From Leptogorgia sarmentosa (lineage: Eukaryota): 64,000 nucleotides of DNA. Position numbers and translations under genes: made by a program. Shown here in pieces: positions 9,340 through 48,792 of the stretch; position 1 is the stretch's first letter; every line of letters begins with the position of its first letter. The DNA is taken from assembly GCA_964658305.1 (NCBI GenBank), contig OZ210885.1, positions 24,490,001-24,554,000 on the forward strand, read 5' to 3'. Below the pieces are notes generated by a model. The model searched no databases. It saw only the letters and a program-made list of their open reading frames with translations, and was not told where the DNA came from.

Positions 9340-9373
9340 TGGGGCCAAGATCGACCGACGAAGCCAATGCCCC
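9315..9373 (+). promoter_or_regulatory. Predicted -1 ribosomal frameshift signal (slippery heptamer plus pseudoknot)
   Basis: G GGA AAC in the gag frame at 9315-9321; stem CGGTCGA/TCGACCG with inner CTTG/CAAG; loop GGGGC can pair with GCCCC at 9369-9373; pol is in the -1 frame. Confidence 0.75.
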
Positions 9374-12300: not shown

Positions 12301-12971
12301 TTCCAATGCAACTGCATTCAGACCAAGGGCGGAATTTTGAGTCAGCTGTGTTCTCGGGAGTATGTAAGTTGCTCGGAGTTGACAAAACAAGAACTACTGC
12401 CCTCCATCCAGAATCGGACGGCATGGTAGAAAGATTCAACAGAACCCTGGAGAATCAGTTAGCCATTTTTGTAGAACATCACCAAAAAGATTGGGATGAT
12501 CATATACCTTTGCTAATGATGTCCTACCGTTCAGCCGTTCATGAAAGTACGAAACAGACACCGGCCAAGTTAATGTTTGGGCGAGAGTTGAATTTGCCAA
12601 TCGATTTGCTTTTTGGAAGACCTCCTAACGAAAGAGTTGAAAGTATTGATGATTATGTGGAAGCATTGGAGAAAAGATTGGAAAATGTGTACGAGTTTGC
12701 TCGGATACGAACACATGTTGCAAGTGATCGAATGAAGAAACGGTATGACGTGTGTGCGTCGGACGAAGTTTTCAAAGTTGGAGAGTTGGTTTGGCTTTAC
12801 AATCCGAGGAGAAGAAAAGGCCTGTCTCCTAAGCTAATGTGTGATTGGGAAGGTCCATGTGTGATTGTTAAACAAATTAACGAATTGCTGTACAGAGTTA
12901 GGAAATCCAATCGGGATAAGCCAAGAATAATACACCAGAATAGACTATGGTGTTATGCAACGGAAAACTGA
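9336..12971 (+). pseudogene. pol: Gypsy Pol (protease, RT, RNase H, integrase) with two single-base frameshifts
   Basis: IDTGAD, LDLKSGYWQ, YLDDII, LDTDAS, HHCC zinc finger, SDQG, ERFNRT; frame changes near 10620 and 12115. Confidence 0.92.
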
Positions 12972-14055
12972 AATAGAACTATATTCGTAAATTGTTCGGG
13001 ACGAACATAATTCTTTAGAGGGGGCAATGTGACAGTCACGTGGATTGTGTATAGCTCATTAGAATTGTAGATAGGGTCTCTATGTATATAAACGTGTGTA
13101 TTTTGTGAATAAAGTGATTTTTTTAGTCCTCTCTTTTCGAGTAGAGGCTTGGAGTGTGCGTTACAAATTGATACTCTCTCCTTTTTCTTGTGATAGTAGA
13201 TACACTAACACCTAAAAGCTTTGCTATGTTACACCAACTAAAATGTAATGATCTTAAAAACTCCAGTTGTTCTTTGTTGATGTCAATATGTGGTCGCCCT
13301 GGGCAACCATTTGATTCTCTTACGTTACAACTAAAACCTAAATACAACAAATTCGGCTCACACCGGGAAAGAAAACCACATATGGCATCAGTGCAACGCA
13401 AAACAGTGGACAAACTATCAGCAATAGAACTCAGTTCATCTCTACCAGATCGTGCTCGGTATTCATTACTATGATATATTAAAAGCCGTAGTGTTGTTGC
13501 CGCGTCTTCGAACCTTCTTTTAAAAGACTCGATAGTTTCTTCGTCGATTCTTTGAATTCCATCATTTAGTCTGGAAAGTTGACTGAAGAGCGATTTAAGC
13601 GACTCAATAAAAACATGGAGGCCTGATTCGTTTCATTCTCTAGCTGCCATTATCTATTGAATACTTTATAGGTATTTGTTGTATATAAACAACTAGTTAA
13701 GACATATCGGAATATTTTTGTAAATTGTGATCGGAATATTTAAATATGTAAATTGCCGTTGCAAGGTGAATAAATAAATGCAAGGTATCCGAATATTTGT
13801 AATTCACTTTCACACCATCAGAAAACAGGGCAATATTTATGATTCGAGAAACAAATAAAATATTGCAAGCTGAATATTTACAAAACAGCTTATTTTGCCG
13901 AATTTGGATACCAATAAATATAAATCAGTGGCAATATATATAAATCCAATGCGAATATATTTATATTACGGTGAATTAATGAATTTATTTAGAATATTTA
14001 CAATTGCTACAATGAATAAATAAAAATGATAGAGGAATTTTTATAAAAACAGTAA

Positions 14056-25123: not shown

Positions 25124-26869
25124 CCAGATTATTGTACACATTCTGATCGTTATAAATGTTATTCACAACTAAAAATTGTTTTGTTTGGAGTAAGTTGTGG
25201 ACAACCAAGTAAATAAGTGATAATTATATTCGTTGTATACCATCATTTTAAGTGTAAGTAAAGTATTTAATCAAACAATATTGTATTTTTATTTAAAGGC
25301 AAATGTATCAAAACATTGGAGTTTTACAATATGATTCATATGTACATCTTAATGGTTTTACAATTCTTATATATTTTTTGAAAAAAATTGCCATCTTCTT
25401 GACTTACAATGGAGATCAATTTCGGATATTCTTGCTAACCGAATATAATTTACAGATATTTTAGGCAGATTTAAGCATTATTTTACATAGTCAATATAAA
25501 GATATTCCAGAGACATTTGTGTTTTCATTTTCCGGAGAAAATAAAGAGGTTTTACAGACATTTAAAAATGTTGTATTCATGTCCTTAATTCACACAGAAA
25601 GTATGATCATTTTAAAGAGATTTTAGATTGAATTTTTAAAATGTATGTAAATTTTCAAAAATTTACATAGAAAACAATAATATTTTACATACATTCAGTG
25701 GTTATTTGAGCAAAGGATTACCTGGAATTTACACAGATTTTGTAGAGATTCGAATTTACAAATAAGAACTTGAGATTTTACAGAGAATTTCTTAACTTTT
25801 TTGATGTCTGTAAATGGTTCAGTTTTTCCAGTGTTCAATCCCTTCCTTTTAAAACAGTTTTCAACAGTGCTTTGCTCAAGCTACAATATGCCAAATCTGA
25901 TGCCAGATGACTTTACATTACATAATAGTTAAGTTAGTGGTTACAGGGTAATTCATTATCTTTTTTGCCCATTAAATCATACAATTTGGTAACAATATAC
26001 TAGAATCTTCTACATGCTGGAATCCCTCAAGAATTATAGAATCCCAGTGGGGCCATGATATGCCAATCAATTCAAAATCTACCCATGCAATCCACTCCAG
26101 ACCAACAAAGGGATGAGATTTAGGATAACATATAGCAGGACTTATTTGTATCATAATGACAAATATATTAGGAAAGCAATTTCCAATATTTTTACATGAT
26201 AAAATAGCAAGCTGCTATCAATAGTTAAATACTGCTGTGAACAGAGCTCATAAGACAATTCTACTTTTGAAGGTTTAGTGCTCAAATAATTTACAAAACA
26301 GGGCAGAAACTTTTTGCAAGAAGGAAATTGACTTTGGTAGAAACTTCGTGCAATTTTCACAGGAGATGTGAAAACTGAAAATGCAGTAGTTGTGGTCACT
26401 CAAGTTAACAAATAATGATTTACTAATGAATATACTGCCATTTCTTTTTATGAATTTACCTAGTATATGTTTTGAAATTTCACGGTGTGACTTCGAAATA
26501 TAGATGTTGTCTTTTTTCACATTTCGTGACGTTTTAACACTTTTTTTGACATTCACCGTTGGTAATAGAATATACAACATATCTTACTTTCAGTCCTTTG
26601 AGCAAATTTATCGGTAAATAAATAAAATGCCTAAATATGTCGAAAAAAACACTGCAAAACTGAAGTTTTTATAAAAAAACCAGGGGGGTGTGGAAAGGTA
26701 GCGGGCTCATAAATCGAGCCCTGGTAAGCGGTAATTCTGTGAGGTTTTCGGTAACTACTTCATAGTCTTGATCTATTGTGGATCCTAGCTGTAATGTATC
26801 TAAGGGTTCTATACATGTTCATAATCATGAATATCCTTTCCTAACCCTCGATAATGGTACATAACCCTA

Positions 26870-28141
26870 CATAGTACTACATAGTATTCCATAGTACTGC
26901 ATAGTACTCCATAGAACTCCACAGTACTCCATGGAACTCCATAGTACTCCATGGAACTCCATAGTATTCCGTGGAACTCCATAGTATTCCATGGAACTCC
27001 ATACAGGGTGTATCAAAAAAAAGTTTACTGATGAAAAACATTCTCTAAACTAACGAGCGCTCAAAATTTCCAAAAACTTTCGGTTAGCCTGGGTAGTTTA
27101 ACACCCTCTGGTATATCTAGTACTCAGTTTATTTTAAAAACAAACTTTTTTAGAATGGGAAATGTGGTTACTGAAAGGCCCATTAAAAACGGCTTGCGCG
27201 GAAAAAATAAGTTTTCTTCACACAATTTGATTTAATCGGATGAAAATATGGAGTATGATATACAAGCTATTCAAGTTTTGAGAAATTTGGTGCACGCTGA
27301 GACGAACGCGCGATGTCCGAAAACTGGATTTTTTCGCGTAATTACGGACCTTTGGGAATTAGCTTGCAATTTGCATTGGTAATTAATGCAAATATCCAAT
27401 TATGCATAAATTAATCGGTAATCACGCAGGAAAGAACGCAAAATCCAGTTTTCGGACATAGCACGTTCGTCTCAGCGTACACCAAATTTCTCAAAACTTG
27501 AATAGCTTGTATATCATACTCCATATTTTCAACCGATTAAATCAAATTGCGTGAAGAAAACTTATTTTTTCCACACAAGCCGTTTTTAATGGGCCTTTCA
27601 GTAACCAAATTTCCCATTCTAAAGAAGTTTGTTTTTAAAATAAACTTAGTGCTAGATATACCAGAGGGTGTTAAACTACCCAGGCTAACCAAAAGTTTTT
27701 GGAAATTTTGAGCGCTCGTTAGCTTAGAGAATGTTTTTCATCAGTAAACTTTTTTTTGATACACCCTGTAGTACTCCATAGAACTCCATGGAACTCCATA
27801 GTACTCCATGGAACTCCATAGTACTCCACAGAACTCCATGGAACTCCATGCAACTCCATAGTACTCCATGCAACTCCATAGAACTCCATGGAACTCCACA
27901 GTACTCCATGGAACTCCACAGTACTCCATGGAACTCCACAGTACTCCATGGAACTCCATAGAACTCCATGGAACTCCATGGAACTCCATAGAACTCCATG
28001 GAACTCCATAGAACTCCATGGAACTCCATGAAACTCCATAGAACTCCACAGTACTCCATGGAACTCCATAGTACTCCATGGAACTCCACAGTACTCCATA
28101 GAACTCCATGGAACTCCATAGTACTGCATAGAACTCCATAG
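26870..28141 (-). repeat. 10-bp satellite array, left arm of element B (interrupted by the MITE)
   Basis: Units such as GTACTCCATA and GAACTCCATG; reverse complement of the right array. Confidence 0.97.
27004..27768. mobile_element. Tc1/mariner-type MITE, almost fully palindromic
   Basis: CAGGGTGTATCAAAAAAAAG...CTTTTTTTTGATACACCCTG; arms about 330 bp; TA TSD at 27002-27003 and 27769-27770. Confidence 0.93.
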
Positions 28142-28922: not shown

Positions 28923-31900
28923 TTATAAAATCTTTTGAGATTCTATCTCTTTTTGTACCATTTTAACATGGACCTCTTGCAACTTCTTCATGTGCATAAT
29001 TTTACCAGAAATCTGGCTGCTTGTTTTTTGCCCAATTGGTAAACCACTATTTTGAAGTGCAAGTGATGATGCCAAGTTGCGATAAAGAATGCTGCTGTTA
29101 ACTGCACTGTTCTGTAAAGGGCTTTCTTCCAAAATTTCCGATATTGTTATTAAAACAATTGTTTCAAGGTCTGTCCATGTACCAGAGTTTATGTTGAAAC
29201 CTTGTTCAGCAAGATATTCACATCCTTTGCTGCGGTGAAAATGTGGCTCGTTGTTTCTTTTCCTCTTGTTGGCTTGCCCTCTGGTATCTTTGTTTCCCAC
29301 TTCCAATGGTTTTCTGTTGCCACAGTTCTTGCATTTGCATGATGTAGAACAGTGTTGCGCATTTCGTAAACACGGGTATTTTGATTTGTGATTATTTGAA
29401 TCTTCACAAGCCACAGGTGACTTGTGACAGGAGCATTCTATTTTCGTCAAACTGTTAACAGCACTTTTACATTGTGAGTTACCGCACAACTTACATCTGC
29501 AGATACGTGAGCAAGTGACCTTCCTGGTAAAACAAGGGCATCTAGAGGTAGTGCACGAGGACGTGTTTATTTCACCTTTCCTTTTCCTGCCACAATTGCA
29601 TCCTTTTTCGTCATCTCTATTTCTCGTTCTTGCATGTACTTCCTCCTCTTGGGCATCTAAATGTATATTATACAGTCGTTAAGAAATATGAAACATTTCA
29701 GTGTTGACATACGGTTGTTGTGTTAAAACTAACAATGGTGGTAAATTAATTACTATTAAACATACCTGATGTTCCGTCATAATGTCCAGGCGATGTGTGG
29801 TTGAAGGTGATATAAATTGGTTTGGAAAAAATCATTTGAGTTGGAAAAAATGAAAATTGTGGTGCACTGGGGTAAGAGGTGATGACAACTATTGGCAATC
29901 CAAGAACGTTAGCGCAGACTTTAACACACAAATCTGCTAAGTTGCTGCCAAAACTGCCTTCTTGCTTAAGGTACGAAACTTCTTGGAAAAAGTGATGTTC
30001 GTCAAGGCCTATCCAATTCTTATAACGATCGACGTTATTCATTAACTCTTGTATGAAAAGCGTGCGAAGTAATGAAGCGTCCTCCTTGGTTGACTTTCCG
30101 AAGCCTATGCCTTTCAAAGTAGAAACAAAGTTTTTAATGTTTTCGTCATTGTCTAAACATAGCAATTTGGATAACTGAACGGTGATGCTATGAAAGCAAC
30201 AATTTCCGTCACCAACTACATTGTCGATTGTTAAGCTGAAAGACAGTAAATTTCTCAACAAAGTCTCTTTATTTCTTCCACTGTCAAGACAGAACTAAAT
30301 TTTAACTCAGGAGCTAAATTTTTCGTTTGTGTTCTAATCAGGCTTGCTTGTTGTTCCATTTGATGGAGAGGAAAACTTCCAAAAGTAATTCCACGATTGG
30401 CAGATTGGCTATTGAGACTATCAAACGTTTCTTGTAGTTGCAGAGCTTAACTTTTGAATAGTGTATGCGAGAATTTCATCTGTGTTCAAGTCTTCAACTT
30501 TATTTGCATTGTATATCTTTATTTTTATGTTCACTTGATCTTGAAATGTTATTGATGGGCAGTCTTGTCGAATATTTCCCTGTCGGTGCAAAAAGCAATC
30601 TGGTACACTATGTATGCCTGTATTACGGACGCCAAGAAACGTATCAGACACGCTGGAAGAATTCTGTTCAATGAAACATTCAGGTGGAACAATTGGGTAA
30701 ACTCTTTGATTTTTTGAATGTGTTCGCTTTTTTCTGCGACAGTTCCAGACATATATGCAAACTGTAAGGCAAGCTACTGCTAATTCTGGTGATATGGTAT
30801 TGGCTCCAACCAAAAGAGAACTGCGCAAATGTCTATGGAATCTTTCATTTTTTTCTGTTCCCTCACCAGGCAAAATACCTGAAAGGCAACCTACATCAAT
30901 GTGTTTCCTCAGAGTATCAATTGCTTTTGCATTCAACATACCCTCCCAGCGATAGAGAAATTGCTCTAAGTTTGCATTTATTATTTCTGGTATCGGTGTC
31001 GCTTGCTGCCTCTCGTCATCGAGATCATTGTCATTCCTGATTATCAAACCGAACTCTTTGCTAAACTGAAGTCTTCGGTTACTGTTATCAAATGTTTGAA
31101 TTACACGTTGGCAGGCATGAAAAATATCGAGTTTTACAAGTGTTTCTGCTCCAAAAACACTTTCATACAAACGCCGCATTTTGCAACAGTCGTCTAATAA
31201 TATAACTTCTATTCCAACACCTTTATCGTTATGTCGTTGTTTCAGATCAACCAAAAGATCTTTGATTTGACATGATCCATGTCACAATTTCTTCATGCTC
31301 GTTCATAACAAAAAGACAATTTTCGAACTGTTTCACAAAAGTGTTGTCATTCCGTTTAATAGATATGTGTTTACTGACTTTAAAGGTATGATCTAGCGAG
31401 AGAACAGTGCCAGTTAACTTTTGCATTTCAGTGGAATATGTATGTTTGATGGTTTCAAAATGCTCAAGAAATATCTGCATAAGTTTATCATTGCTGGGGA
31501 AAGAGTATAGCATGTCGGCATAAAATGAATCCACAATATTGTCACAATCGGTAAATGTTCTCTGATATTTTCGAAAATTAAGTAAGGGATGCTAACCGTT
31601 CTGAAATTTTCAAAAAGTTTTGTCCAAGTTCTATATTCGTCCAGATATCGTCAAGGAGGTCAGTCGTAAATGCACTTTTGTGGTGCAAGATGACTGGAAG
31701 TTGTGTAAGGGAGGTTTTGGGCAACCTGTCCAAAATTTCTTTGGATCCAGATAGATAGGTATGTTTTGGCCAGTTTAATCCATGAGGCGAATTGCACTCA
31801 TATAATCTTTGCACCAATATTATGTTACAACCTAAATCGTACGCAAGTCGTGGGTTCCAGTTACTCTTCTTCTCCAAATCAGACATCCATTTTTTGAGCT

Positions 31901-32156
31901 GCAGTCTACTATTATGAATAGGACATAACAGTTGCAGATTAAAGTGGCTAACTGGACACAAGATGAATATTTTTGGCAGGATTTTGCAATCTGGAGCGCT
32001 AGTTAATATGACATGATCAAAGCGAGGATGTTGAGGATCTTTATCAAACTCCTTTAATACAGATTGTAGCACATTATGTGCGTGTTTGCTGATAAATACC
32101 GCCCAACCAGTGGCCAAGATATAGAATACTATTACCAGTGACACAACTGTTGCCAT
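28923..32156 (-). pseudogene. MULE-like transposase fused to OTU protease, two CXC domains and a SANT-like tail
   Basis: LSLDHTFKVSK, MNEHEEIV, LLDDCC, VKLDIFHACQR, GTEKNERFHRHL; OTU VVGDGNCCFHSI...PGHYDG; intron 29765-29657; then CNCG...CPC...C...CRC..CGN and a second similar repeat, and WTDLE. Stops and frameshifts near 31578, 31250 and 30420. Confidence 0.72.
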
Positions 32157-32353: not shown

Positions 32354-32479
32354 TAAAGCTATTCTTAGAACTGAACAAATGTCATTGGAATTGAAAATGA
32401 ACATGACAACAAGTCGATAAAGCTATTCTTAGAACTGAACAAATGTCATTGGAATTGAAAATGAACATGACAACAAGTC
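32354..32479. repeat. 64-bp tandem duplication in the divergent intergenic region
   Basis: TAAAGCTATTCTTAGAACTG...CAACAAGTC at 32354 and 32418. Confidence 0.92.
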
Positions 32480-33956
32480 AACTGTTTCTTATGGCAAGTG
32501 TGCACACTCCGGGTTACATGTGAAACAGCAGAATTCCAAAATTTGCTAGGATGATGGATATGGATGATCTGTTACAATGCGACACCAGCACAGACACAAA
32601 TATAGACTTCGATGAAAGATTGGATCAAGCGTTGGATAATGAATTAGACCAAGCCCGTGTTTCGCATCGGTCAGACAAGAGTAAAAATTCATCAAGGCGT
32701 AAATTTGTAGTTCAATCAGGCGAAATCGGCTATATGAAAGGAGACAATTTCGTGGCTGTTTCAAATTTTACGGTGGAATGCACTGGATTCGTCAGCAAGA
32801 ACGCAAACTCGACCACTGCTGAAGGCTATTTCATTGATGTCATACCAAAAGCATCCGTACAGGCTCCAGAGAATGATTGCAGCCTAAATACAAATACAGA
32901 AAAGAGGTAAGGATTATCAAAATACTACGATTAATTATACAGTAGCTATAAAAAAGTTCAAAACTTACTATAAATTCGTCAGCTTAATTCGCAGTCGTCG
33001 GCTGTTGTGCATTATGCATGATTTCAAAATTTTGTACACCTGCATGCCTTGTAGAAAACAGCCTGAATTGTTCAGCTTCTATTTTTGCATGGAAGACAAA
33101 TTGAAAGCTGGCAAAAAATTGCAATAATTATCACATGACTATCGAAATCATTTCCAAATTTAGATCGTAAGCCCAGTAATTACTTCGGTAACCACTAATG
33201 ACAAAGTTTTACCAATTTTGTTTTCTATTTTTCTAGGGAGTCGTATTATTTGACATGGAACAGTTGACAGGACAATTCGACGGCGTGCCATTAATAGTCG
33301 CTTATTAATTGGCCAGTTTGATAGAGTTGAGATAAATTTATTTTTATTTGATTTCTTGCTTTGAAATAGACCTAAGACCTTATCATTGTGATCTTATGCA
33401 TAATAACGCTTTGTTGCGTTGCGTGCTTGTGTAACTAATTTGACATCTTTTCCCTTCAAATTAAAGTAGCTAGTGCATGTGCGCGCAGGTTAAGTTATAT
33501 TTGTAAAAACATTTTATGTATTTAATTTTTTGTTTGCGCATGATTGTATATTTAGAGTGCACCCTGGCTGGGCTTGTTAAAATGATAGGAAACCAGAGTC
33601 TACCGTTTTGGTGGGATGACGCGGACAAATTTTCCATCCTAGAGAAGTTGGCTGTCATGGCATTTAACAAAGTAATAATTTTGATAGTGTACAAGTATTT
33701 TTTAACATTCAATTGTTTAGGTTTATTAATAGGTTTTTTGTTGCTCATTCATGTTTCTAATTCTACAGTCCAAAAAGAAGACATTAAGAAAAATGGATGG
33801 GGAATGCAACAGCGCAAGAACCGTGCCTTTAGTTACTATGAATCCAACAACATTGACAAAGACGATCCTCAACAACAAAGAGAAGTTATCCAGGTAAATG
33901 TAATTTAATTCACATTTTTGACAACTATATATAATGTGGTTTGGTGTAGTTATATG

Positions 33957-36900
33957 TGTAAGAAACTGCTAGACAGTGTTATTTATAACCGGAACTGAGT
34001 TGGGACTTCCGGTTAGCACTGCGGGGGGGTTTTGTTGTTGTTGTTGTACAATTTTGAGGCAACGGGTTTGGTTGTGTTTTTTTTGGAACGATCGAGGATC
34101 AATAAAATGTCTAAATAAATCAGTGTGCGACTTTATTATATGGCGCCTAACGTGGGGCACTAGCCCAGTCGAAAGTTTGAGAAGATTATTTGCGAACCGA
34201 TCGAAATGTCAACCGGACAGCAAGCCAGTAACGAGCAGGGCGGCAGCGAAGCAACGAACAGCGAGGCGACGATTACGAACAGCATAGCAATGAAAAATTT
34301 CGAGAGAACCAAAGCGATACGAAGGGGACACCGTGGCGTTGTAACGAAATTGACTAACGAGGTTTCATCATACTACAGTACCGAAGAAAAATTACCCGAA
34401 GCGATGTTATACCGTTTAGAAATAATCGACCGAAATTTAGAAACCAAACTACGAGTACGCGAGGAGTTGAATCAACAAGTATTAGACGTTTGCGAAGTCG
34501 AAGAAATCGAAACAGAAATCGAGGAAGCCGAAGCAATTTTGTGGAAAATATTGGAGTGTAGAAAAATTATTGGCATAACACAGCAAAGGCAAGAATCGCT
34601 GCGTCACGAGGAGTTGTCACAAGCGCAAGAATCGAATTCGCAAGAGGAAATACAAGCTACACAACCACAACAACTTGAAGTCACAGCGCAAGAGGAAGGT
34701 TCGTCACACGAGGTGGTCAATCAAAGTCAAGGTCAAGGTACTGTGATAAACAATGTTAGTTCGACTCCAAATGTTAATACAAGCTCTATTACACGAACGC
34801 GTTTACCGAAGCTCACGCTACTAAAATTCAAGGGAAACATTATAAACTGGACAACATTTTGGGACTCTTTTCAATCAGCCATTCACAACAATGGGGACAT
34901 TACCGACATTGACAAATTCCGGATGAAATACGATTGCACATTGCACGAAGGAGCTCCAAAAATGTGTGGGAAATTAGTGAATTGCTCGAAATCATTAAGG
35001 TTGAAGTGGAACCACGAGAGGCGAGCAGTGCAGTGAAGGTCAAAGAGAGTCGCAGACAAAATGAACCCACAGGACATCAAAGAAACCGGCAGTCGTCAGC
35101 AGGAACGTTTACGACTAGAGTGAATGGTGTTGCTCCGGATAGTATCAAGTGCGTATATTGCAACGATAGCCACTTTTCCGCTTCATGCAAGAAATTTACC
35201 GACGCTAGGGAAAGAAAGGACATTCTGTATAGGGACGGACGGTGTTTCAACTGTATAAGAAAGGGGCATCAGACAAAGGATTGTCAAAGAGCTAAAACAT
35301 GTCGTGTGTGTAGTGGAAGACATCACCAGTCAATTTGCACGAGCCAGAAGGAAACCCCGAGGCCTAACCCAGACAACGAATCGCGGCAACCCCAGGCGAA
35401 GGCGGCTCAATTAGACTCTGTTACCAAGACAGTGACAGTAAAGGGCGAAAGAGTAGGGAAAACGGTTCTTCTGCAGACAGCTACAGCCGTCGTGTTCAAT
35501 GAAAGCAACTCCAAATCGGTACCTGTTAGAATCTTGTTCGACAATGGATCTCAACACTCGTATGTTACATCCCAGTTGAAGTCTCGTTTGGGTCTGAAGC
35601 CAATCAAAACAGAGACATTGCGTCTGAACACCTTTGGTCAACCTAATTACAGGAAGGAGAAATGTTCGGTTGTGAAACTTTGCTTGAAGAAACGCGAACA
35701 GGAAATTGACCTAGTTGCATTGGACTACCCCGTCATCTGTTCTCCACTTCCAACGAAGGTTTGCATCGAGCATCCGCATTTAGAGGGCCTAGAGCTGGCG
35801 GACGATTGTGAAGGCGCGTCGGCCGATATCGATATCCTTGTAGGATCGGATTATTATTGGGAGTTAGCTCGAGGGGAAGATGGCCCGACCGCAGTTGCCA
35901 GTAAGCTGGGATGGTTACTGTCTGGACCGCTGGGGGATACAGAAGAGAGCTCAAACCTTTCAGTATCCAATCTAATTATCGCTGGAAATTGCAATTCGCC
36001 CGAGAACGCAACACTAAGTGACCCTATTGTCGAAGCACTACGGCAGTTCTGGGATGTGGAGACGGCTGGCGTAATAGACAAGACTCCACCATACGACCAA
36101 GTGATAGACGACATCCGATTTGACAAGGATCGTTATGTTGTTGGACTTCCCTGGAGTTCAAAACTGTAATCCCGAATGTACCAATTACGAACTGAGTCAC
36201 AACCGTTTGAGATCATTGCACTACAAGCTCAGAAATCAACCAGATATTCTAAAGGAATACGATAGCATCTTAAAGGGACAACTCGAATCCGGAATTATAG
36301 AGGAGGTACCCAAGGACGAAATCGAGATACGAGAACCGAGTGAAGTACACTACACACCCCACCACGCGGTCGTCAGGAAGGACAAGGAGACAACGAAGGT
36401 TAGAATTGTGTATGACTGTTCGGCCAAACCAACGTCGCAGCAACGTTCGCTAAACGACTGCATGGAAACTGGTCGTAATTTTATTCCAAAATTGTTTGAA
36501 GTGTTGATCAAGTTTAGAAGCAATCCAATTGGCCTCGTGGCAGATATCGAGAAGGCGTTCCTCATGGTCGGAATACGAAAGGAAGATCGCGATCGGTTGC
36601 GGTTCTTGTGGTTTAAGCATCCCGAGAGCGCAAATCCGGAATTGGTGCAAATGCGTTTTTGTCGTCTCGCTTTTGGATTGAAGTGTTCCCCATCCATGCT
36701 AGGAGGAACAATTATGCACCATTTAAAATCGTACAAAGAGCGCTTTCCTGACATTGTAGAGATAATCAAGGAATCCCTGTATGTGGATGACCTGGTGTCT
36801 GGATCAACAAGCGATGATAAAGCGTTCGAAATTTATGAGAAATCGAAGAAAATATTCGCAGATGGCGGGTTTAACTTAAGAAAGTGGAGTTCGAATTCGA

Positions 36901-39862
36901 AGGTCCTAATGGAGAACATAAGAGGAAGTGAACGTGTCGCCGGAGACGGACAACCACCACGACGTGAACACGAAACACAACCAATGACTACCGAAGACGA
37001 CGAGACGTACGTCAAGTATCAAGTTGGTCCATACAACAACCAGGAAGAAAACGACACCGTGAAACTGCTTGGAATTAATTGGAACACTACGCGCGATGAG
37101 TTCTTCTACAACATGTCCGAACTGATTGAGTACGCCGAGACCTTGCCAGTCACTAAGCGTTCTTTGCTGAAGTTGACGGCAAAGATATTTGACCCGCTTG
37201 GGTTGCTCAGTCCTGTCACGATCAAGATGAAAATGATGTTTCAAATCTTATGCAAGGAGGGAGTCGATTGGGACGAACAACTTCGTGGAGACGTGGAAAT
37301 CCAATATCGAGGTTTCCTGGTGGACCTACATAAGATAAACCGGTTACGAATTCCCAGATGCTACTTTATGCTTGCTAGTACGCCAGTGTCAATACAATTG
37401 CATGCATTTTGTGATGCCTCGGGGAAGGCGATGGGCACAGCCGTTTATCTCAGATCAGCTTACGAAGATGGTATTGTACAAGTGCGTTTAGTCGCTTCGA
37501 AAACGAAGGTAGCGCCGATTAAGAGACAGACTATCCCTCGACAAGAACTGCTCGGGGCAGTTATCCTCGCCCGACTGGTTGACACAATCGCGAATGCCAT
37601 ACCTCGAGAAATCGAAATATTTTATTGGACAGATTCAATGACCTATTATATTGGATCCTGAACCTCAAGCAATGGAAGCAGTACGTGCAACATCGCGTAC
37701 AGCAAATATGCGGCTTGACAAAGGGAAGAGTGTGGCGACATTGCCCAGGCCATCTGAATCCGGCCGACCTACCATCGAGAGGAATTAGTGGAGCAGATAT
37801 TGTGGAGAGCAGTCTGTGGTGGTCGGGTCCAGAATTCCTTCTCAAAACTGAGGACCAATGGCCAGTGAATCCGGTAATCGACAAGGGTGAAGCTTTCGAC
37901 GAATTAGTTAGACACCCGGCTCCGACAACGTTCATCATGATCAATCAGACTGAAAGAACGGGAGGCGTAGATGTTGGCAAAATTATTGTCTGCGAACGAT
38001 TCAGCAGCCTGAATTCACTACTTCGAGTAACAGCGTATGTGTTTAGAGCAGTCGTGTCCTTCAAACGGAAAGCCAAGGACCACTCGAATCAATTGACTAA
38101 GGCACGGGAGTTGACGGCGGAAGAAATCAACACGGCAGAAACCTGTTGGATCAAGTCAGTTCAAATGACGGCGTTTGATGAGGAACTTGCGTATCTAAGT
38201 GGGAATCAGAGATCTAGTACCCCGTCACTCATGCCTCAGTTGGGACTGTTTGTAGACCGGGATGGTGTCCTCAAGAGCAGGGGTCGAATCTGGCACGCGG
38301 ATCTGCCACAATCAACCAAGACTCCTGTTCTGTTACCAGCGAAGCATGGGTTTGTCCAACTGGTTATTTTCGCCTTCCATGAAAGGGTGAAACATAGCGG
38401 AATAAGAGATACCTTGTCCACTGTTAGAGAAAGATTTTGGATCTTACGAGGGCGTGAGGCGATTAAAAGAGTCATAAGGAAGTGTGTGTTGTGTCGAAAG
38501 TTACAAGGACAGCCATTTCAACCCGAGGTTTTGCCAGATTTACCAGCTGATAGTGTATCGGAGGATCCTCCCTTTCACCATACAGGACTAGACTTTGCTG
38601 GTCCTTTGTTTGTGAGGCGATCGAAGGAGTCCGAAGAAGAGAACGAAATGGTCAAGGCGTATGTGTGTTTGTTCACATGCCAATCAACGAGAGCAATTCA
38701 TTTGGAACTGCTTCTACGTCTAGACGTTCTATCATTTTTGCAAGCGTTCCGCAGATTTGCCAGCAGAAGGGAACTGCCATCAACCTTGTTGTCAGACAAT
38801 GCGAAGAATTTTAGGTCGTCGTCTAAAGACGTAGCGAAGATTGTACGATCTGATGAAGTGAAGAGATATCTCGCCACCAATAGAATCGCGTGGAATTTCA
38901 TAGTGGAGCGAGCGCCTTGGTGGGGGGGTTTCTGGGAGCGCCTGGTAAAGAGCGTCAAGGGGTGTATCAAACGAGTTATTGGAAGAGCGTCATTATCGTT
39001 CGAAGAAATGAGGACAGTGCTCACAGAAGTGGAAGCAATCATTAATGCACGCCCTTTGACTTATTTATATGACGACGAGGAATCTATTTCATATCCGTTA
39101 AGTCCGTCCCATTTGATAAATGGTCATCGAATTACTACGACACCGAACAGCGAGCACTTTGACGTAGTCAGCACGTACAAGACCCTAACGAGAAGAGCCC
39201 GACATCAGAAGAACATTTTGCAAATGTTTACTAACCAATGGAGGAAAGAGTATTTGACCGGATTGCGGGAGCAGCATCGTATTAAGGCGAAGAAGCAAGG
39301 GGGACCATCTATATCCGTTGGTGACGTTGTAATTGTAAAGAACGACTCAACGTCAAGGTTGTTTTGGAAGCTTGCGATAGTGGAAGAGTTGATACAGGGA
39401 AGTGATGGGAAAGTTTGAGCAGCAATGGTCAAGGTGTCTAACGCTGACAAGAAACCGTCTCGACTGCGACGAGTCATACAACATCTATATCCAATCGAGA
39501 TGAAATGCGAGAACCAAGAAGGTCAGGAAGGACAAGAAAAGGCGGAGCTTGAACTGGAAGATGCGACAATAAACTGGAAAGGCCGCGAAGAAAGACAGCT
39601 GAGAGAGGAGAACTACAACGAAAGAAGAATATGTAGGGACTTATTGATCACCCCGTGGTGAATCAATCCGGGGGAGTGTAAGAAACTGCTAGACAGTGTT
39701 ATTTATAACCGGAACTGAGTTGGACTTCCGGTTAGCACTGCGGGGGGGGTTTGTTGTTGTTGTTGTTGTACAATTTTGAGGCAACGGGTTTGGTTGTGTT
39801 TTTTTTGAAACGATCGAGGATCAATAAAATGTCCAAATAAATCAGTGTGCGACTTTATTATA
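33957..39862 (+). mobile_element. BEL/Pao LTR retrotransposon, both LTRs present, coding region decayed
   Basis: LTRs 33957-34140 and 39677-39862; 5-bp TSD ATATG; PBS TGGCGCCTAACGTGGGGC (tRNA-Lys-like) at 34141; PPT before the 3' LTR. Confidence 0.96.
34206..39661 (+). pseudogene. BEL gag-pol polyprotein with a gag deletion, stops and frameshifts
   Basis: LPKLTLLKFKG (DUF1759-like), triple Cys-His knuckles, LFDNGSQ protease, ADIEKAF and YVDDL RT, FCDASG RNase H, GLDFAGP and APWWGGFWER integrase. Confidence 0.93.
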
Positions 39863-40979
39863 ATATGGTTCATCATCAACTGCCATAAATTCTTGTTTCA
39901 GAACGTTCTCAAGGATCGCAGTAATTCCATAAGTGTGGGTGTGGTGCTGGAACTGAGAGAAGAATATAGGAATATTAGAAATGATCCTATGTTTCTTGAG
40001 ATGACGGATGCCATAGAAGCTGTAGAAGAAATGGACATGCGAGCACAGTGCAATTATGCACTGCTTTTTTACAGTACAATCAAGGTATGGTCAATATTTT
40101 TAACTGGTTATGAATATCGAAACGATCAAACGAATTTGCGAGCTTTTCATGGACACAATCAATCGCCCTGAACTGAACGAGTTCAGTGGATATTGTGCAT
40201 TATAGATTAATTATTGCAAAGTTTGGTTACATTGTAAAGTATGCGAATTTGGTATTTACTTGTGTTATGCACGCGAATTTTATTCCGGTTTTTCCGCGCG
40301 TAATACGAGTATATCATTTCCTCATTTTAAAAGGTTCTCATTAAATATATACGTTGTATAATAAATAAATGCAATTGCCTAATACTTCTTTAAAATCACA
40401 GATTTTGCAAAAAATTGGAATGACGGAAAGTCTTTTTCCCTTCATGAAAGACTGGATGGTGAACGTTCTGTTACCAGCGCATCTAAAGCTTGTGGGAAAA
40501 TGTGAAACAAATATTGAGAACCCGGCAAATGAAGCCTTGTACAAGGCGATGCGAGATGATATCTCTCAAACTTGCAACTTGGTTATAGGAATAGTAAAAA
40601 AAGCTATTTCTAATCCGAAAGTTTGTTGTTTGATGGATAAAAATGGAGTATTTTGGTGAATTTTAATTAAGTCCTAAATTAATGCTGTACCATGTATTAT
40701 ATATGATTTCATTTCTGGGCAAAAGATTTTTTTAACCCAATGTTAAGTGCAAGGAAGTGTTTTTGTGGTCAGGTGTTTGCTTTTAACGTTCCCAAGGCTC
40801 TTTCGTTCATTGGGTCGAATTGTTCAGGTGATCTTTTAAGGTCATATGTCCGCAGTCAAGGTGTTGGATGCAACGGAGTGAAGTTTAATGTTGATAACAA
40901 ACAGTATGTGGGAACGCACATTAGATATAGTACTCTGCCAGAAAGCGTACGTGAGGATCTTCTCAAAGGTGAGTATGTG

Positions 40980-43900
40980 TAGTCCAGCTGTTAAACGACA
41001 TAAAATAGCCAAATTGTTCGTTTTGTGATAAAAGCATGAAACTTGGCTCAAATACTCATCTCGATGTGCTTGTTAATTTGTGATATGGAGGCATTTGAGA
41101 TATCGCCTATATTTCCTGTAATGCGCATGTCAAAAATCCTACAACGTGAAAACGAGGCTGAGCAAAGAAAGCTCGTTTTTATGAGTTTTATCCATTGAAT
41201 AAAGTCGAAAATAGTTGTAAAACATTGTTTAAGGATTAGTTTGTATTATTAGGTGTTTTAAGAATTTTCACATGATCACCCACGTGAAGACGGTAGGAGG
41301 TGCTGTTTCAAACCTGGTTGTAAAATTCCTCTAAACTAAAACACTAAATTATGTTAAAGTATATTTTTGTCCTTTACTTGTTAAAGCTGGAGAAATTGCA
41401 TATTTCATCTCAAAAAACTTTATTCAGCGGAGGGGAGGTGGGGGGGGGGGGTGATTGAGAGGTTCATGTATTTTAGTGTCCAGTCCTATCGCGTTTTTCA
41501 AGATGGCGACTTGCAATGTCAAAGGTTAATGTTACCGTTCATCTACAACAACTGTAAGTAAAGTTCTTGATAGTTTTTTTTTGGTTTAAAATGTTCACTA
41601 TTCAATCATAACACTTTAAATTGCTTAAATATTACAATTATCAAAAAGAAAAGACAATACTTCTATGAAATAGCGATAATTTAGTACAGTTTTATCGATG
41701 TTGAACTCAGTATTATAGTTGACACGGTAAAATATAATATGTATGGATGCATGAATGGATAAATCAACTTTATTTCAAAAGGATAAATAAGTATGAGTTA
41801 CAAAACGTTTTTGAATGAAAGCTATTGGCAATTAAATTTTAAAACCATCCAAAAGGAATTGTATAAGTCCATGATGATAGATACAAATCATTCAAGCTCT
41901 TATTAAATTTAATTACGATCTCATTTATATTACGTCGCATTACGACACTTTTTATTTTACTTTTTATTTCACTTGTATTCACTTAAAGGGTCTTGTGATG
42001 GCTACCCTCAGTAATCAGTCTACAATACCTATTAATTGGAAACTCTGTGTCATTTGTCAAGTTAAAACTAACGAGCCTCTACAATGTCCTGCAAATTCAA
42101 AAAGAAGTGACGTGGGAGCAGGATACAAATCTTTAGTCGACAACATAAAGTTGTTTCACGATGTCGGTGAGATCCCATTAAAAGTTGATCTAAGTAAACT
42201 GAATGATGGTTCAGGAGTTGAAAATTCATTACTCCAAAATAAAGCTTCATGAGCTTCATGGCATAAGTCATGCAGGAACAAATTTAACATTACTGAGATC
42301 AAAAGAGCTCAAAAACGAAAGGCATGTGAGAATGAAAGACGACCCAAAGAAAGCAGCCCATGTAGGACGAGGTGGACAAGCTCATTGCATTCTTTTAAGG
42401 GGAAGAGTAGTGAACTTAGATGTTTCTTCTGCGATGAAGTTGATAGTAATGCTAACCTCCATCGTGCATCGACTGAAGTAATAGATAAAAGAGTGAAAGA
42501 ATGTGCTGTCCAATTAAAAGACAGGAATCTCCTAACCAAACTGGCTGCTGCCGGTGATATGGTAGCCCTAGAAGCAAAATATCACTCCCGCTGTCTGGCA
42601 TCGTTGTACAATCGCTACAGGAAAATGGCCAACACAAATAGTGATAAAGCATCAGGACAAGAAAAACGCCTGCACGGAATTGCTTTTGCAGAAATCATTT
42701 CCTACATTGAAGAATTCTTTGAAGAGAGAAATACGAGTAGTAATGTTCCCAGTCTCAGGCTAGCAGATCTTGCGAAGATGTACATGACAAAACTCAAAGA
42801 ACTAGGTGTTGATACAAGTCGTGTCAATACCACAAGACTAAAAGAAAGAATACTGTCAACTTTACCACATGTGTCAGCACATCCGCAAGGAAGAGACATA
42901 GTATTAGTTTTAGATCGTGATGTTGGGGGCGCCATAAAGTTGCTAAATGACCAAGACACTGATGTTGAGGCAATGCATCTCGTCAGAGCTGCCAAAGTAA
43001 CACGCAAGGACATCCTGAAGCAGAATCAGTCATTCAAAGGAACATTTGACACTGACTGCCAAGAGAACGCAATCCCTCAGTCTCTTAAAGCTCTCATTAA
43101 TTTTATTTTGAGAGGGCCAGGTACCCAAAGAAACACAGCCATCAAAGAATCAGTAGAAGTAAATGAAACACAAGCCTCCCGTTCTATATCTCAGCTAATT
43201 ATCTACAACACAACCATACGTCAGGCTAAAACACCCCAAAATGCTACACGCCATAAGAGAGAAAGAGAAACACCTCTCCCAATATATGTTGCACTCAAAA
43301 TACATGGCCTTACTAGAGGACGAGGTTTGATCGACGCACTATTCAACCTTGGACTTTGCATTTCCTATGACAGAGTGTTAAGCATATCAACAGACATTGC
43401 GAATGCCATGTGTGAACGATTTGACAAAGATGGTGTAGTCTGTCCTCCAGTATTAAGAAGTGGAATCTTTACTACAGCTGGCTTTGATAATATTGATCAT
43501 AATCCGAGCTCCACTACATCTCGAGATTCATTTCATGGCACAGCAATTTCACTAATTCAACACCCGACAAAGCAAACACCGGGAACTGTTAGAGAAGCGA
43601 CTGTTATAGATGGCCGCCCTCAGAAAGAAAGGGAAATTTCCTCACTACCAACCCAATTCAGTGATGTCCAGCCATTAGTTTTATTACAGCGAGATCTGTC
43701 ACCTCCACCACTGATCGGGCAGCTCCCAGACGTAGAGAATGTGAACAATTATGCATACAAGAAAGAAGACCAGTGGCTTCTTAATGTAAAGGAACTTATG
43801 AGGAAAGAGAAACTTGAATCAGATGATAATATTTCATGGGCTGCTTACCATGCATCAAACGAACGGGAACTGAACTATGAACCAGCTATTACTTCACTGA

Positions 43901-46782
43901 TGCCCTTGTTCCTAGAAAACGCACATTCTGCTCCAATGATTCTTCACGGTATGAATGTCATCCGCTCCGCAGTAGGGCTAGTAAATCCAGGTCAGACTCC
44001 CGTTATCGCAATGGACCAGCCGCTTTTCGCTCTGGCGAAACAGATCCAGTGGCAATGGCCCCACACTCATGGAGAAGACAAACTGTTGGTGATGTTTGGA
44101 GGTTTGCATATTGAGATGGCAGTGCTAAGAACATTGGGTAATTATTGCATAATAGTTATTATTTTTCCATCTATTTAAACATTGTTACTGATTTAAATGT
44201 TTTTCCTTTTTAATCTCATATATTGTTAGCGAATTGATCATTGCGTTTTTAAGAACTTTGTATTATTATTTAGGTAAGTGGCTAGATAAGAGTGGATGGA
44301 CAACTGTCATGGTAAATGCTGGTGTTGCAACCCCTGGTGTTGTCGACTCTTTCACCTCAGCTAAACACATCACAAGAACTAGAAGAGCTCATCAAGTATC
44401 TTCCGCCTCCCTGTACATTCTTCAGCAGTGTGCATATGAAAAGTACGTTACAAAAGCTGAAGATAGAGTCCCCCTGTCGTTTACAGATTGGAGAGATAAG
44501 AAATCAGAACAGTGCCCACAATTTCTCTACTGGTGCAGAGTCATGGAGCTGCAGCTACTTTCCTTGCAGTTGGTTAAAGCATTTAGGACAGCGGATTTCA
44601 AGTTGTATGTTGACTCCCTAACGAAGATGATGCCTTGGATGTTTGCACTTGACCAGACAAATTATTGCAGATGGTTACCAGTCCATATCCGTGATATGCA
44701 AGAGCTTCCTATCAAACACCCTGATGTGTACGAGAAATTTACCAGTGGCTTCTTCGTTGTTCATAAGACGCAGAAACGATTCTCTGCTATGGCACTGGAC
44801 CAGGCACACGAACAGGAGAACGCAGTGATCAAAGGTGAAGGTGGGGCGGTAGGACTTACGGAGAACCCAGGCGCTCTAAAACGCTGGATGATTTCTGGGC
44901 CCGAGATTGCCAGAATCGTCAACGAATTTGAAAAGACAACAACAACATCCTCTAATGACAGTCTAAAGCACCACGAACAGTCATACAGTCATCGAGTGGC
45001 ATTTCAGAAGGATATACAGTCAGTGGTTGACAGTTTTGAAGAGCTGGGAAATCCCTTTTTGGAGGAAGGTAAAGATCTGCTAGCAGTTGACACCAAGGAT
45101 ATCATGAACAATGACGTTGTGGAAGCTGTGAAGAATGTTGAGAAAATAGGCCAAGAAAAGCACTCAACGTATGTAGAATGTAGACTGAAACGCAGGACAA
45201 CACCCATCACAGAGCCTATCACGAAAAACAAGTTGTCTTTATTTAATAATTCATACGAGAACGTTCAATCCAAGGACAAATCAAAGATTCTTCAGTTAAA
45301 AAATGACTGTTCATTGTTCTCTCGGTTGTATATTGCGTGTCAAAACCGAGACGGAAACCTTGAAGAGTTCTTTAAGCACGAAAATCAGCCTTGGCCACCG
45401 TCACTAGCCGACAAAGGAGAACTCAGAAAAGGACAGAAATCTGACCTAGTGAAATGCCTTGAGGCCCTTCAGACAAACATCACCAATGAAGCCCCCGTAG
45501 TGGAGAGTGTGGTTGTAGATGGCGCAGTTGCCGTTCAAATGTTGAAACCAGGCACAGCACGTACCTTTCAAGAGTATATTGATACTGTTTTCAAGCCCTA
45601 TGTCCTCAAGCAACTTGAACATGTCAAGAGAGTAGACATCGTATGGGATGTGTACAGAGAAGACTCACTGAAAACAGGCACAAGAGAAAAGAGAGGTAAA
45701 GCAACACGTCGCAGAGTGTTACCAACAACTGCTATCCCAGGCGACTTGAGCTCTTTTCTTCGTGTGGATCAAAATAAAGTAGAACTCTTCCACCTACTAT
45801 CCCAAGAAACGGCCTCGTTGGAAGTAGAACATCGAGAAATATATACCACCATCGATAAAAATGTCTTACACTCTGGGTCATGTCGAAATGATCTATCACC
45901 TCTACAGCCATGTACACATGAAGAAGCAGACACAAGGATCATGTTACATGTGAAGGATTCAGCTGTCTGTGGACATCAAAGTATCATGATACGAACCATT
46001 GACACTGACGTTGCTGTATTAGCAATATCAATGAATCTAATCTAAAAGCTAATCTAGACTGTACAGCCTTATGCCTCTGTGCTGGGCATTCTCTCCAAGA
46101 CTCCTGATCAGGCGATGTAAGTTACGTTTGTGGTTACACAATAACAAAATCAAATTACGTTTTAGTTCATTTGAGTCACGTGTTTTAGCACGCGATAATT
46201 TTAACTCTCTCACAGTCTTTCTAGATTAACCCCTTAAAACAATTTCAGCAATATTTGACGTCAAAATGGACTAGGGACGTGACATTTTTGGTCAGCCTCG
46301 TTTTCATATTATTTTTTTGGCATACACATTTAAAAAGGTAGGCCTTTTCTGAGATAACGTCTGTCTCCATATCACAAATTAACAAGCACATCGAATTGAG
46401 TAAGTATGGCAGGTTTTATGCCTTTATCACTGAACGATCTATTTTTGTTTTAAGAGCCTTCTATTTCGTTTGAGTCACGTGGTTGACCATGTGTTATTCA
46501 CTAAAACGCTCTCACAACATTTCTCCATTTTCTAACTCCTTAAACAATGTTTTACAACTATTTTCGACATTATTCAATCGATAAAACTTATAAAAACGTG
46601 CTTTTTTTGCTCAGCCTCGTTTTCATGCTGGAGCATTTTTGACATGCGCATTACAGGAAATATAGGCGATATCTCAAATGCCTCCATATCACAAATTAAC
46701 AAGCACATCGAGTTGAGTATTTCTGCCAAGTTTCATGCTTTTATCACAAAATGAACAATTTTTCACCTTAACAGCTGGACTA
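40980..46782 (+). mobile_element. Academ DNA transposon in an intron of the ATPase-like gene
   Basis: Termini TAGTCCAGCTGTTAA...TTAACAGCTGGACTA with about 300-bp imperfect TIRs; 3-bp TSD GTG; duplicated subterminal block at about 46150-46480. Confidence 0.92.
41998..46108 (+). pseudogene. Academ transposase with XPG-like domain, disrupted
   Basis: FDNIDHNP, SFHGT, MDQPLFALAK, FGGLHIEM, DQAHEQEN, HEEADTRI, DTDV; intron about 44139-44273; in-frame TGA at 42250; deletion near 46040 before the terminal CTALCLC. Confidence 0.9.
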
Positions 46783-47109: not shown

Positions 47110-47485
47110 GAATACGTTGAACCCACCAGAAAATCTGTTGAACCCACCAGAAAATACATTGGACCCACCGGAATATACGTTGAACCCACCTGAAAAGACG
47201 TTGAACCCACCAGAAAGTACGTTGAACCCACCAGAAAGTATGTTGAACCCACCAGAAAATACGCTGAACCCACCTGAAAATACGTTGAACCCACCTGAAA
47301 AGACGTTGAACCCACCAGGAAATACGTTGAACCCACCAGGAAATACGTTGAACCCACCAGGAAATACGTTGAACCCACCAGAAAAGACGTTGAACCCACC
47401 AGAAAGTACGTTGAATCCACCAGAAAAGACGTTGAACCCACCAGGAAATACGTTGAACCCACCAGAAAAGACGTTGAATCCCCAG
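47110..47485. repeat. 21-bp minisatellite, about 18 copies
   Basis: Consensus GTTGAACCCACCAGAAAATAC. Confidence 0.97.
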
Positions 47486-48671
47486 GTGAACACATGAGGT
47501 CAGTTCACAAGGCTGTTTCATGCTGTTATAGCTTTATTAGTAGTTCATGCACAAGCCAGCATAAAAGTGGTCCGCGAATGATAATTGGAGTGCACCCAAT
47601 ATGTTTTGTGAAGTATAGTTTTACGTACGGTTTGATCTCTGATCTAATATACAATAAGATTACTCGCTCTCCTTTTATACGAGATGATAGTTGATTTAAG
47701 CTTCATTCTCATCACATATCATTTCATAGAGTTCTCGAGCTAGCTCGTAATCTAATTATAAATTAGAGGAAATGGTCATTTATCGTACCATTGAAACATG
47801 ATTGAAGGAATAATCAAAGACGAAACTGATTGAAAATTGTGAAATCGTCGCAAGATGTATCGTAAATACTGCAGTAAATACTTTTTAAATGCTTGTTCTT
47901 TTTTCTTAGGTGGAATGAACAAAAAGAAAAGAAGTGCATTGAGTGACTCGCTAACGGACTACTTCAAGCCATCAGCTAAAAAAAGACGTTAATATGTTGA
48001 CAAAATCATTACCACTGCCACAGAGTAATTACACACAGGGGTCTCACTTGGCGAAAAAATACAGGAGGAAAAAATCCATGCCCTTAATTAGTTTACCTAT
48101 TTGTTTGTAGCCAGCCTCTGGGTGCGACATTGCTGGCGGCCAGACAAAAACACCTTGCGCTTTGTTGAAGCGATAACCTAACCTACCCTGTGTGTGTTAC
48201 TGCGGTTCATGTTATCTTTTTAATACGAAGTAGTAAATGACTTGTTTAAAAATAAACTGCTTCTTTATTGGGACGATTTCAAGTTTGTTTTTTCACGTAG
48301 TGGTAGTGGTAGCGAGTTGTGTATGGTGACCATGGTCTTAAACCTGAAGTTTGCGACGACTTACAGTAGTCACACTATGGGCGTTCAACAAAACTTAGCA
48401 GTACAAATTTTCCCATGGCAAACTTGAAAGTCTTGTATTCAGTTTAAATTCTTTTTATTAGGAACTATAATCAAGAATTAATACATGCCCCAATTTCGGC
48501 GTGATGCCTTGTGTCACTTTAGCATCTTCTTTTGCCAATTGATAGTATTTTGTTTTGGGTGTGTCAAATTGCGTACAGGCATGCAGCAATTCTATCACGT
48601 AAGACTGGGGCTAACAAAGTCTTGAAAAAAGGAATGAATGGAAAACATATTTTAGAATCAAGGGCAGAATA

Positions 48672-48792
48672 CTATTAGTACTATGGAGTACTATGTAGGG
48701 CTATGTACCATTATGGAGGGTTAAGAAAAGATATTCGTAATTCATGATTACGAAGATGTATAGAATGCTATGTAGTACTATGGAGTTCCATG
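48672..48792 (+). repeat. Degenerate internal copy of the element B right-TIR segment plus the first 10-bp units
   Basis: TATGTAGGGCTATGTACCATTATGGAGGGTTAAGAAAAGATATTC...ATGTATAGAA resembles 57500-57567 in the same orientation. Confidence 0.8.

Follow-up and report, generated by a model that had tools for sequence, protein, structure and literature searches.

A foldback DNA transposon in Leptogorgia sarmentosa with a decayed Mutator/IS256-fold transposase gene encoding OTU and CXC domains and a predicted signal peptide

Organization of the transposase gene

A 64-kb stretch of the genome of Leptogorgia sarmentosa (contig OZ210885.1), called the window here and giving the numbering for all positions, carries on its minus strand, at 32156-28923, a gene encoding a transposase, an OTU deubiquitinase domain and CXC cysteine clusters. 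This gene, referred to below as gene A, once encoded the transposase of a foldback DNA transposon of the Mutator/IS256 fold, which spans 30.9 kb (26750-57624), and is now decayed. Its coding sequence is spread over six stop-free frames that follow one another on the minus strand (32162-31578, 31591-31247, 31281-30421, 30446-30255, 30294-29746 and 29678-28923). The original prediction, made from the letters of the window, had placed the open reading frame (ORF) fragments on one strand correctly and counted five of them. Alignment to close intact relatives (57–70% identity) located four frameshifts, near 31581, 31260, 30446 and 30300. A single phase-1 intron of 109 bp with GT..AG borders (29765-29657) leads in frame from the OTU His loop into the last exon, in agreement with the predicted intron before two cysteine clusters, and a comparable donor lies right after the OTU His loop in several related loci. 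From about 797 codons in exon 1 and about 244 in exon 2, a protein of about 1040 aa is expected, close to the 1000 aa that had been foreseen. The window copy is dead because of its four frameshifts and therefore, if the element moved recently, it moved in trans.

The N-terminus of the reconstructed protein is a predicted 19-aa cleavable signal peptide (32100-32156, from hydrophobicity and the pattern at positions -3 and -1), followed by an N-terminal Cys/His-bearing domain that corresponds to DUF6729 matches in intact relatives (31581-32099). The DDE transposase core (30700-31580, with two frameshifts) was delimited by motifs, alignment and the model of a relative. It contains DHTFK at 31393, LDDCC at 31197, DIFH at 31128, RWEG at 30951 and NERFH at 30849, which place the core residues D at 31393, D at about 31191, DxxH at 31128, W at about 30948 and E at about 30846. 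In the OTU domain (29766-30260) both the Cys loop, GDGNC at 30213, and the His loop, GHYD at 29787, are intact, as originally noted. The two CXC clusters, of the tesmin/MSL2 type (29316-29600; CXC1 29600-29478, CXC2 29435-29316), are followed by a basic patch resembling a nuclear localization signal (NLS; 29256-29267) and by a three-helix C-terminal domain (28989-29177) that is weakly Myb/SANT-like at best.

Fold of the transposase core

The fold of the core was assessed on a predicted model of the Sanderia relative P0027, which has a predicted local distance difference test (pLDDT) score of 68.7 and in which the CXC region was not modelled. Structure comparison gave ISCth4 as the best match of the core, with E 1e-8, Z 17.2 and 334 residues aligned at a root-mean-square deviation (rmsd) of 4.5. 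The modelled core is RNase H-like with its nearest match in IS256/Mutator, so that a core devoid of the RNase H fold is ruled out, and on this model the core of gene A is a DDE transposase fold of the IS256/Mutator type. The D-D-DxxH-E set is intact in 58 of the 67 relatives of at least 740 aa, DxxH stands 22 aa after the second catalytic D, and the family alignment has a nearly invariant tryptophan, W419, upstream of E463, whose counterpart in the window lies in RWEG at 30951.

Profile searches of the core gave weak matches to DDE_Tnp_ISL3 (E 3.8e-4) and ISLre2 (E 2.4e-4), below the curated cut-offs, and the Pfam MULE family (PF10551) reached E 0.058 at best in the relatives, also below cut-off. 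The similarity of language-model features (ESM Atlas) between the core and an oomycete cluster annotated as MULE domain was 0.94; look-alikes by the same measure included this oomycete cluster and chordate clusters, one of them with DUF6729. The core had been predicted to be MULE-related and of the DUF6729 type. Its Mutator/IS256 fold bears out the former, whereas DUF6729 itself is found in intact relatives (best E 4.6e-10) at the N-terminal region and not in the DDE core; the proteins that carry DUF6729 here are thus now placed in the IS256/Mutator fold. Our literature search found no paper on DUF6729. Pfam scans of the window and the relatives contained no KDZ, CxC1-7, SWIM or SAP family at E up to 0.5-1, a KDZ transposase domain together with CxC, SWIM or SAP domains being what we take to mark KDZ/Zisupton elements. 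Several marks of Mutator-like elements (MULEs) given in PMC5499845 are present in the gene A family or its element, namely DDE, the DxxH spacing, W before E, an 8-bp target site duplication (TSD) and long terminal inverted repeats (TIRs); W419 may be the equivalent of W401 of the Aedes element Muta1.

OTU, CXC and C-terminal domains

The OTU domain of the window copy was recognized above cut-off by Pfam (E 2.5e-6), OTUD3 was matched with E 1.1e-6, and the corresponding region of the P0027 model gave Z scores of 9-10 against OTU domains (Otu2: Z 9.7, rmsd 2.8). Gene A thus encodes an OTU deubiquitinase domain with intact catalytic motifs and predicted activity. The CXC clusters of the window copy scored below cut-off (Pfam TCR E 0.0027, MSL2-CXC E 0.012), and MSL2-CXC was above cut-off in the relative P0163 (E 2.4e-7), so that the Pfam comparison proposed for OTU and TCR/CXC came out positive for both, the second in a relative. 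The C-terminal tail consists of three confident helices with an invariant W (P0027 model and alignment). It reached the Pfam Myb/SANT profile with E 0.14 in only one of 15 aligned tails, and no Myb structure was matched by the tail in a profile search of structures. The basic patch after CXC is present in all eight full-length leader-bearing relatives that were examined.

Family architecture and distribution

Searches with the core found 32 longer relatives and 772 clusters at 50% identity, the best 150 of the 772 being listed. The family occurs in jellyfish, hydroids and sea anemones, with intact members in Nematostella, Clytia and Hydractinia, and no relative was found among the viral contigs searched. 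A single chain with the order DUF6729, core, OTU, CXC and helical tail is seen in Sanderia P0027, Clytia XP_066934802.1 and XP_066913274.1 and Nematostella XP_032240268.2. Hydractinia XP_057302830.1 has the same single-chain layout, but its OTU-type region is devoid of the catalytic motifs. Family proteins have one or two CXC clusters. Among 80 related loci, most of them on short contigs that end early, the OTU piece was matched in 45 and the CXC exon in 23, always downstream and on the same strand. These single chains and loci rule out that the OTU/CXC part is a separate gene, and the transposase-OTU-CXC fusion is a real, family-wide trait; of the four-part fusion originally proposed, the transposase, the OTU domain and two CXC clusters stand, while SANT has the one weak match given above.

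Beside gene A, four loci of other families contain an unassigned second gene other than gene B (the divergent neighbour described below), with about 100 conserved aa (L033:905-1270, L046:1044-1316, and downstream in L027 and L077), and elements of this family seem to carry swappable partner genes. The family is apparently an undescribed clade of Mutator/IS256-fold foldback elements. In the literature searched, outside which lay subscription journals and Repbase, neither this family nor any transposase bearing a signal peptide was described, and a Repbase name may exist.

The N-terminal leader

The N-terminus of gene A had been described as oddly hydrophobic. This is a real feature and matches a cleavable signal-peptide pattern found throughout the family: where the N-terminal domain is complete, relatives mostly begin with Met, continue with a run of hydrophobic residues and then turn polar. 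In six leader-less relatives the initiating Met lies exactly 18 residues before the first-helix anchor, at a position held by V or I when a leader is present, and this position was taken as +1 in an alignment of 31 leader-bearing rows (30 relatives chosen by eye for a hydrophobic leader, some of them close kin, plus the window). Small residues occupy position -1 in 26 and position -3 in 24 of the 31 rows, compared with 10 each at -2 and -4 and a background of 25%; in the 22 rows that needed no length adjustment the counts are 19 at -1 and 15 at -3. The leader is mostly 16-25 aa long, with a hydrophobic h-region of about 11-13 residues (mean hydropathy 2.3-3.2 over -13 to -6, negative at -5) followed by a polar c-region. 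It is kept across clades at only about 30-40% identity. We conclude from the sequences that the N-terminus is a predicted cleavable Sec signal peptide, of the signal peptidase I type, with textbook anatomy. Cleavage would regenerate the ancestral N-terminus, since the Met of leader-less relatives sits exactly at +1.

At the DNA level, codon position 2 of the leader-coding sequence is rich in T (0.49) and poor in A (0.10). Of 17 loci, the window included, five have a Met with an h-region in frame, compared with none of 34 shifted frames, and the leader region is disrupted in three of the 17. The leader is present in RefSeq or transcript-labelled proteins of Clytia and Nematostella, including both Nematostella isoforms. 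The 31 leader-bearing rows have no conserved downstream Met that would bypass the leader: in 30 of them the following Met does not occur until +19 to +213, inside the folded domain. No second membrane segment was seen in leader-bearing proteins. A paradox results, in that a predicted secretion signal is borne by an enzyme that needs the nucleus and that has a basic patch and an intact active site in the same chain.

Four leader-bearing relatives have kept the OTU triad and have lost DDE or DxxH residues (P0062/P0181/P0182, Nematostella LOC5514795; P0055; P0039; P0109), a state that resembles domestication, and where the record is complete they also keep CXC. P0062 and P0055 have identical core changes and group together, which suggests that they represent a domesticated, possibly secreted OTU gene.

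Possible roles of the leader

The presence of the leader was compared with that of the OTU catalytic residues in 35 of the 67 relatives of at least 740 aa. The OTU Cys loop is present in all 26 leader-bearing rows and in one of nine leader-less rows. In a quick tree built from the transposase portion the leader and OTU states each change five times, and one leader-less pair with a dead OTU is nested within a starred leader-bearing clade.

The reading that we favour, tentatively and without considering it probable, is that the transposase is routed to the endoplasmic reticulum (ER), cleaved there, partly returned and rescued by its OTU domain before it reaches the nucleus. The signal peptide would send the protein to the ER, where removal of the leader would leave an N-terminus like that of leader-less relatives. 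Part of the transposase would then escape or be retro-translocated to the cytosol, its own OTU domain would strip off the ubiquitin attached by quality control, and the basic patch would drive nuclear import of the small surviving fraction, which would move the element. The leader would thus act as a throttle on the level of transposase, and the OTU domain would make the ER detour survivable. We favour this reading because cleavage restores the leader-less start, a start site bypassing the leader is not conserved and loss of the leader goes together with loss of OTU catalysis. If true, ER detour and self-deubiquitination would be a novel form of transposon self-limitation.

Several observations weigh against it. 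The hydrophobic run has no nearby Met in 9 of the 17 loci, and the upstream exon that these would need was not seen; a small first exon probably supplies the Met, because several of these loci have, by eye, an acceptor-like site just upstream. The 32 long rows outside the association count were truncated, redundant or ambiguous, and the link between leader and OTU comprises two independent pairs on starred branches and five on all branches, so that with two to five contrasts, short of significance, co-retention is a lead and not a result. Sequons for N-glycosylation are depleted equally with the leader (117/157) and without it (48/64), and lysine is not scarce (6.5% with, 7.7% without); a trace of ER passage in the sequences is therefore absent. 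The OTU domain needs no ER story, since transposons with no known leader, such as MuDR-6_HM and Helentrons, also carry OTU or other proteases. Retro-translocation of a Cys-rich protein of 1000 aa that has to stay active is also demanding.

Alternatively, the transposase would be fully exported and other cells would take it up, for instance germline or stem cells receiving it from the soma, where it would mobilize resident copies and its OTU domain would protect it on entry. A classical cleavable leader conserved across clades at the low identity given above, the lack of a second membrane segment and the combination, within one chain, of an NLS-like patch with domains of DNA-binding type agree with this, but profile and structure comparisons recognized no uptake domain, the depletion of sequons is not specific to leader-bearing proteins and no precedent was found in the literature searched. 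We regard it as unlikely that a widespread animal DNA transposon family secretes its own transposase and so mobilizes copies in cells that never expressed it; if it did, it would be a DNA-transposon counterpart of the soma-to-germline invasion by enveloped retroelements, with transposases acting between cells. Rather unlikely, too, is the production of two isoforms, in which an alternative first exon, splice or start would give a leader-less nuclear transposase and the leader form would serve as a sink or have an extracellular role. The acceptor-like sites just upstream of the leader do indicate a spliced 5' end in several loci, one clade (P0012) has a Met at +1 behind the leader, and domesticated-looking copies retain leader and OTU while losing DDE residues. 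However, the acceptors found precede the h-region, so that splicing to them keeps the leader, the next Met falls within the folded domain in nearly every row, and both RefSeq isoforms of Nematostella have the leader.

It is improbable that the leader remains uncleaved and anchors the transposase in the membrane of the ER or in the inner nuclear membrane, with the enzyme facing the nucleoplasm. The highest hydropathy over 19 residues, 2.5 in the window copy and in P0052, would suit such an anchor; against it, the h-region of the family is short and followed by a polar c-region that obeys the -3/-1 rule, and several clades have basic residues ahead of the h-region, an arrangement that favours a C-terminus-out topology. 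Finally, most relatives are single-frame calls from contigs and about half of the loci have no nearby Met, as would be expected if the leader were a gene-calling artefact running into AT-rich or polypyrimidine-tract intron sequence. This we rejected as very improbable and largely refuted by the bias at codon position 2, the result for the 34 shifted frames, the -3/-1 pattern and the RefSeq or transcript-labelled proteins of Clytia and Nematostella. The ER detour with OTU rescue, favoured here, would amount to self-limitation, and self-limitation versus action between cells is testable in Nematostella, Clytia and Hydractinia.

The element and its surroundings

Self-comparison of the window showed that the foldback element containing gene A is bounded by TIRs of 120 bp that are 99% identical, the left one on the plus strand starting with GG (26750-26869) and the right one on the minus strand (57505-57624). 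The same eight bases flank it on the left (26742-26749) and on the right (57625-57632). The flank belongs to a high-copy host repeat. In empty copies of this repeat, from contigs of one sample (three runs of one study, also the source of the copy numbers below), the left flank continues without interruption as the right flank, and the 8-bp TSD is thereby confirmed. A related locus, L033, has a 113-bp inverted repeat for which no TSD was found, so that the 8-bp TSD is that of the window element alone. In the sample contigs gene A appeared only once at 85% likeness; one more copy was found of gene B and one of the TIR, the latter with a different flank.

Arrays of a 10-bp unit lie inside both TIRs, in accordance with the arm repeats originally described. 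The left array (26870-28141, plus strand) has 47 units in about 0.5 kb and is broken by a palindromic miniature inverted-repeat transposable element at 27004-27768, whereas the right array (52986-57504, minus strand) has 389 units in 4.5 kb. The commonest unit of the right array contains an 8-bp palindrome, and all three frames of one strand form long open repeats. Of the 80 related loci, 24 have short-period arrays with differing units, and in L011 the arrays stand in inverted orientation at the two ends; the count of 24 is a raw one with no background control, and several of the loci are near-identical. We infer that the CXC clusters and the helical tail would bind the arm arrays. An additional copy of the right TIR, 82% identical and with a few array units (48670-48792), perhaps represents an older element end.

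Four nested elements together take up 16.6 of the 30.9 kb. A BEL/Pao long terminal repeat (LTR) retrotransposon on the plus strand (33956-39862; LTRs 96% identical, with DUF1759 and an aspartyl protease) does not belong to the ancestral element. Two nested TIR elements follow, one on the plus strand (41011-46761; 230-bp TIRs 94% identical, ORFs of 641 and 617 aa) and one on the minus strand directly after the internal TIR copy (48793-52985; 303-bp TIRs 99% identical, 9-bp TSD, ORF of 726 aa). Their long ORFs had no Pfam match, and from motifs we take them to be Academ-like and AcademH-like, respectively. Outside the nested elements' own ends, gene A appears to be the only DDE-type gene of the element. 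The element also contains a perfect 64-bp tandem duplication between gene A and gene B (32354-32479) and an array of 18 copies of a 21-bp unit (47111-47485), which probably lies in a gene B intron. Elsewhere in the window are a Gypsy-type LTR element (7603-13165) with 138-bp terminal repeats, very recent because these are 100% identical, an alpha-kinase gene to the right of the element (57849-59358, Pfam E 2.9e-26) and a HECT-like ORF (5002-6279, Pfam E 0.027), the latter two amid transposon debris.

The divergent gene B

About 400 bp from gene A, a divergent multi-exon gene of a putative DUF927-like P-loop nucleoside triphosphatase (NTPase), gene B, begins on the plus strand. It is split by the LTR element, resumes beyond it and extends to at least 40970 (32550-40970), with a possible last exon at about 47909-47990. 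The window copy is missing every exon as far as the one with Walker A, which is also absent; a second copy in the sample contains additional sequence at this place. Walker A occurs together with a Walker B-like WDD motif in relatives from Acropora millepora and Paramuricea, and the language-model feature likeness of these relatives to DUF927 clusters is 0.92. Profile scores are weak (Pfam DUF927 E 0.16, PHROG primase E 0.009), the predicted model has no confident fold (pLDDT 37), and searches for PDB, NCBIfam or phage matches gave none. Gene B is a candidate DUF927-like helicase gene; that its product acts as an ATPase or helicase on target DNA is conjecture. The same head-to-head pair is found in L007 with a gene A distant in sequence. 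Since gene B was found in only one of 18 related loci with at least 1.5 kb upstream, it is a partner of some families only. In P0200 (Acropora millepora LOC122947290, a low-quality gene B model) residues 1-25 are hydrophobic and leader-like, a start that the other gene B relatives lack and that is probably a modelling artefact.

Comparison with known systems

The nearest structural relative of gene A is ISCth4, of the IS256/prokaryotic Mutator group (PDB 6XGX, 6XG8), which shares the fold, DDE with a helical insertion and DxxH, at a Z of 17 compared with about 10 for the next family. The two are only 11-13% identical, and ISCth4 is bacterial and has no introns, leader, OTU, CXC or arm arrays. 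The ISL3 and ISLre2 transposases are likewise prokaryotic and resemble the core by weak profile likeness only; ISL3 elements have an 8-bp TSD and GG ends.

With respect to gene B, helicases of the DUF927/Cch type belong to bacterial mobile elements (PMC10061031). Relatives of gene B resemble them in Walker A and the Walker B-like WDD motif. Gene B differs in being an intron-rich animal gene beside a DDE transposase, so that an animal DDE element here has a putative DUF927-like NTPase gene as its partner.

Precedent exists for an OTU fusion by itself, in that a Helentron protein carries an OTU-like protease (PMC6431247); Helentrons use rolling-circle RepHel chemistry with no DDE. OTU on transposons is also mentioned in passing in PMC5751038. 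PMC6446971 lists MuDR-6_HM of Hydra as a cnidarian MULE with an 'Ovarian Tumour Gene' motif and without TIRs, and by this listing it resembles gene A in combining MULE and OTU. Rehavkus elements, treated in the same paper, resemble the gene A element in a minisatellite that precedes the 3' TIR. They differ in their PHD finger and 9-bp TSD: the gene A element has an 8-bp TSD, and Pfam scans of the window and relatives gave no PHD match. What sets the present family apart is a predicted export signal that it retains although cut-and-paste transposition takes place on chromosomes, and it points to possible domesticated secreted OTU genes in sea anemones.

The element as a whole is most readily compared with Muta1, a foldback MULE of Aedes in which subterminal tandem repeats promote transposase binding and excision (PMC5499845). 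Muta1 and the gene A element have in common DDE, the (C/D)xxH motif that marks MULEs at a distance of 15-45 aa from the second D, a W ahead of E, an 8-bp TSD, GG ends and TIRs with subterminal repeats. Cut-and-paste transposition with array-assisted binding of the ends would follow for the gene A element by analogy with Muta1 and from the fold. Muta1 differs in its 504-aa protein with an N-terminal FLYWCH finger, compared with about 1040 aa and DUF6729, OTU, CXC and a leader in gene A, whose element has arrays of up to 4.5 kb.

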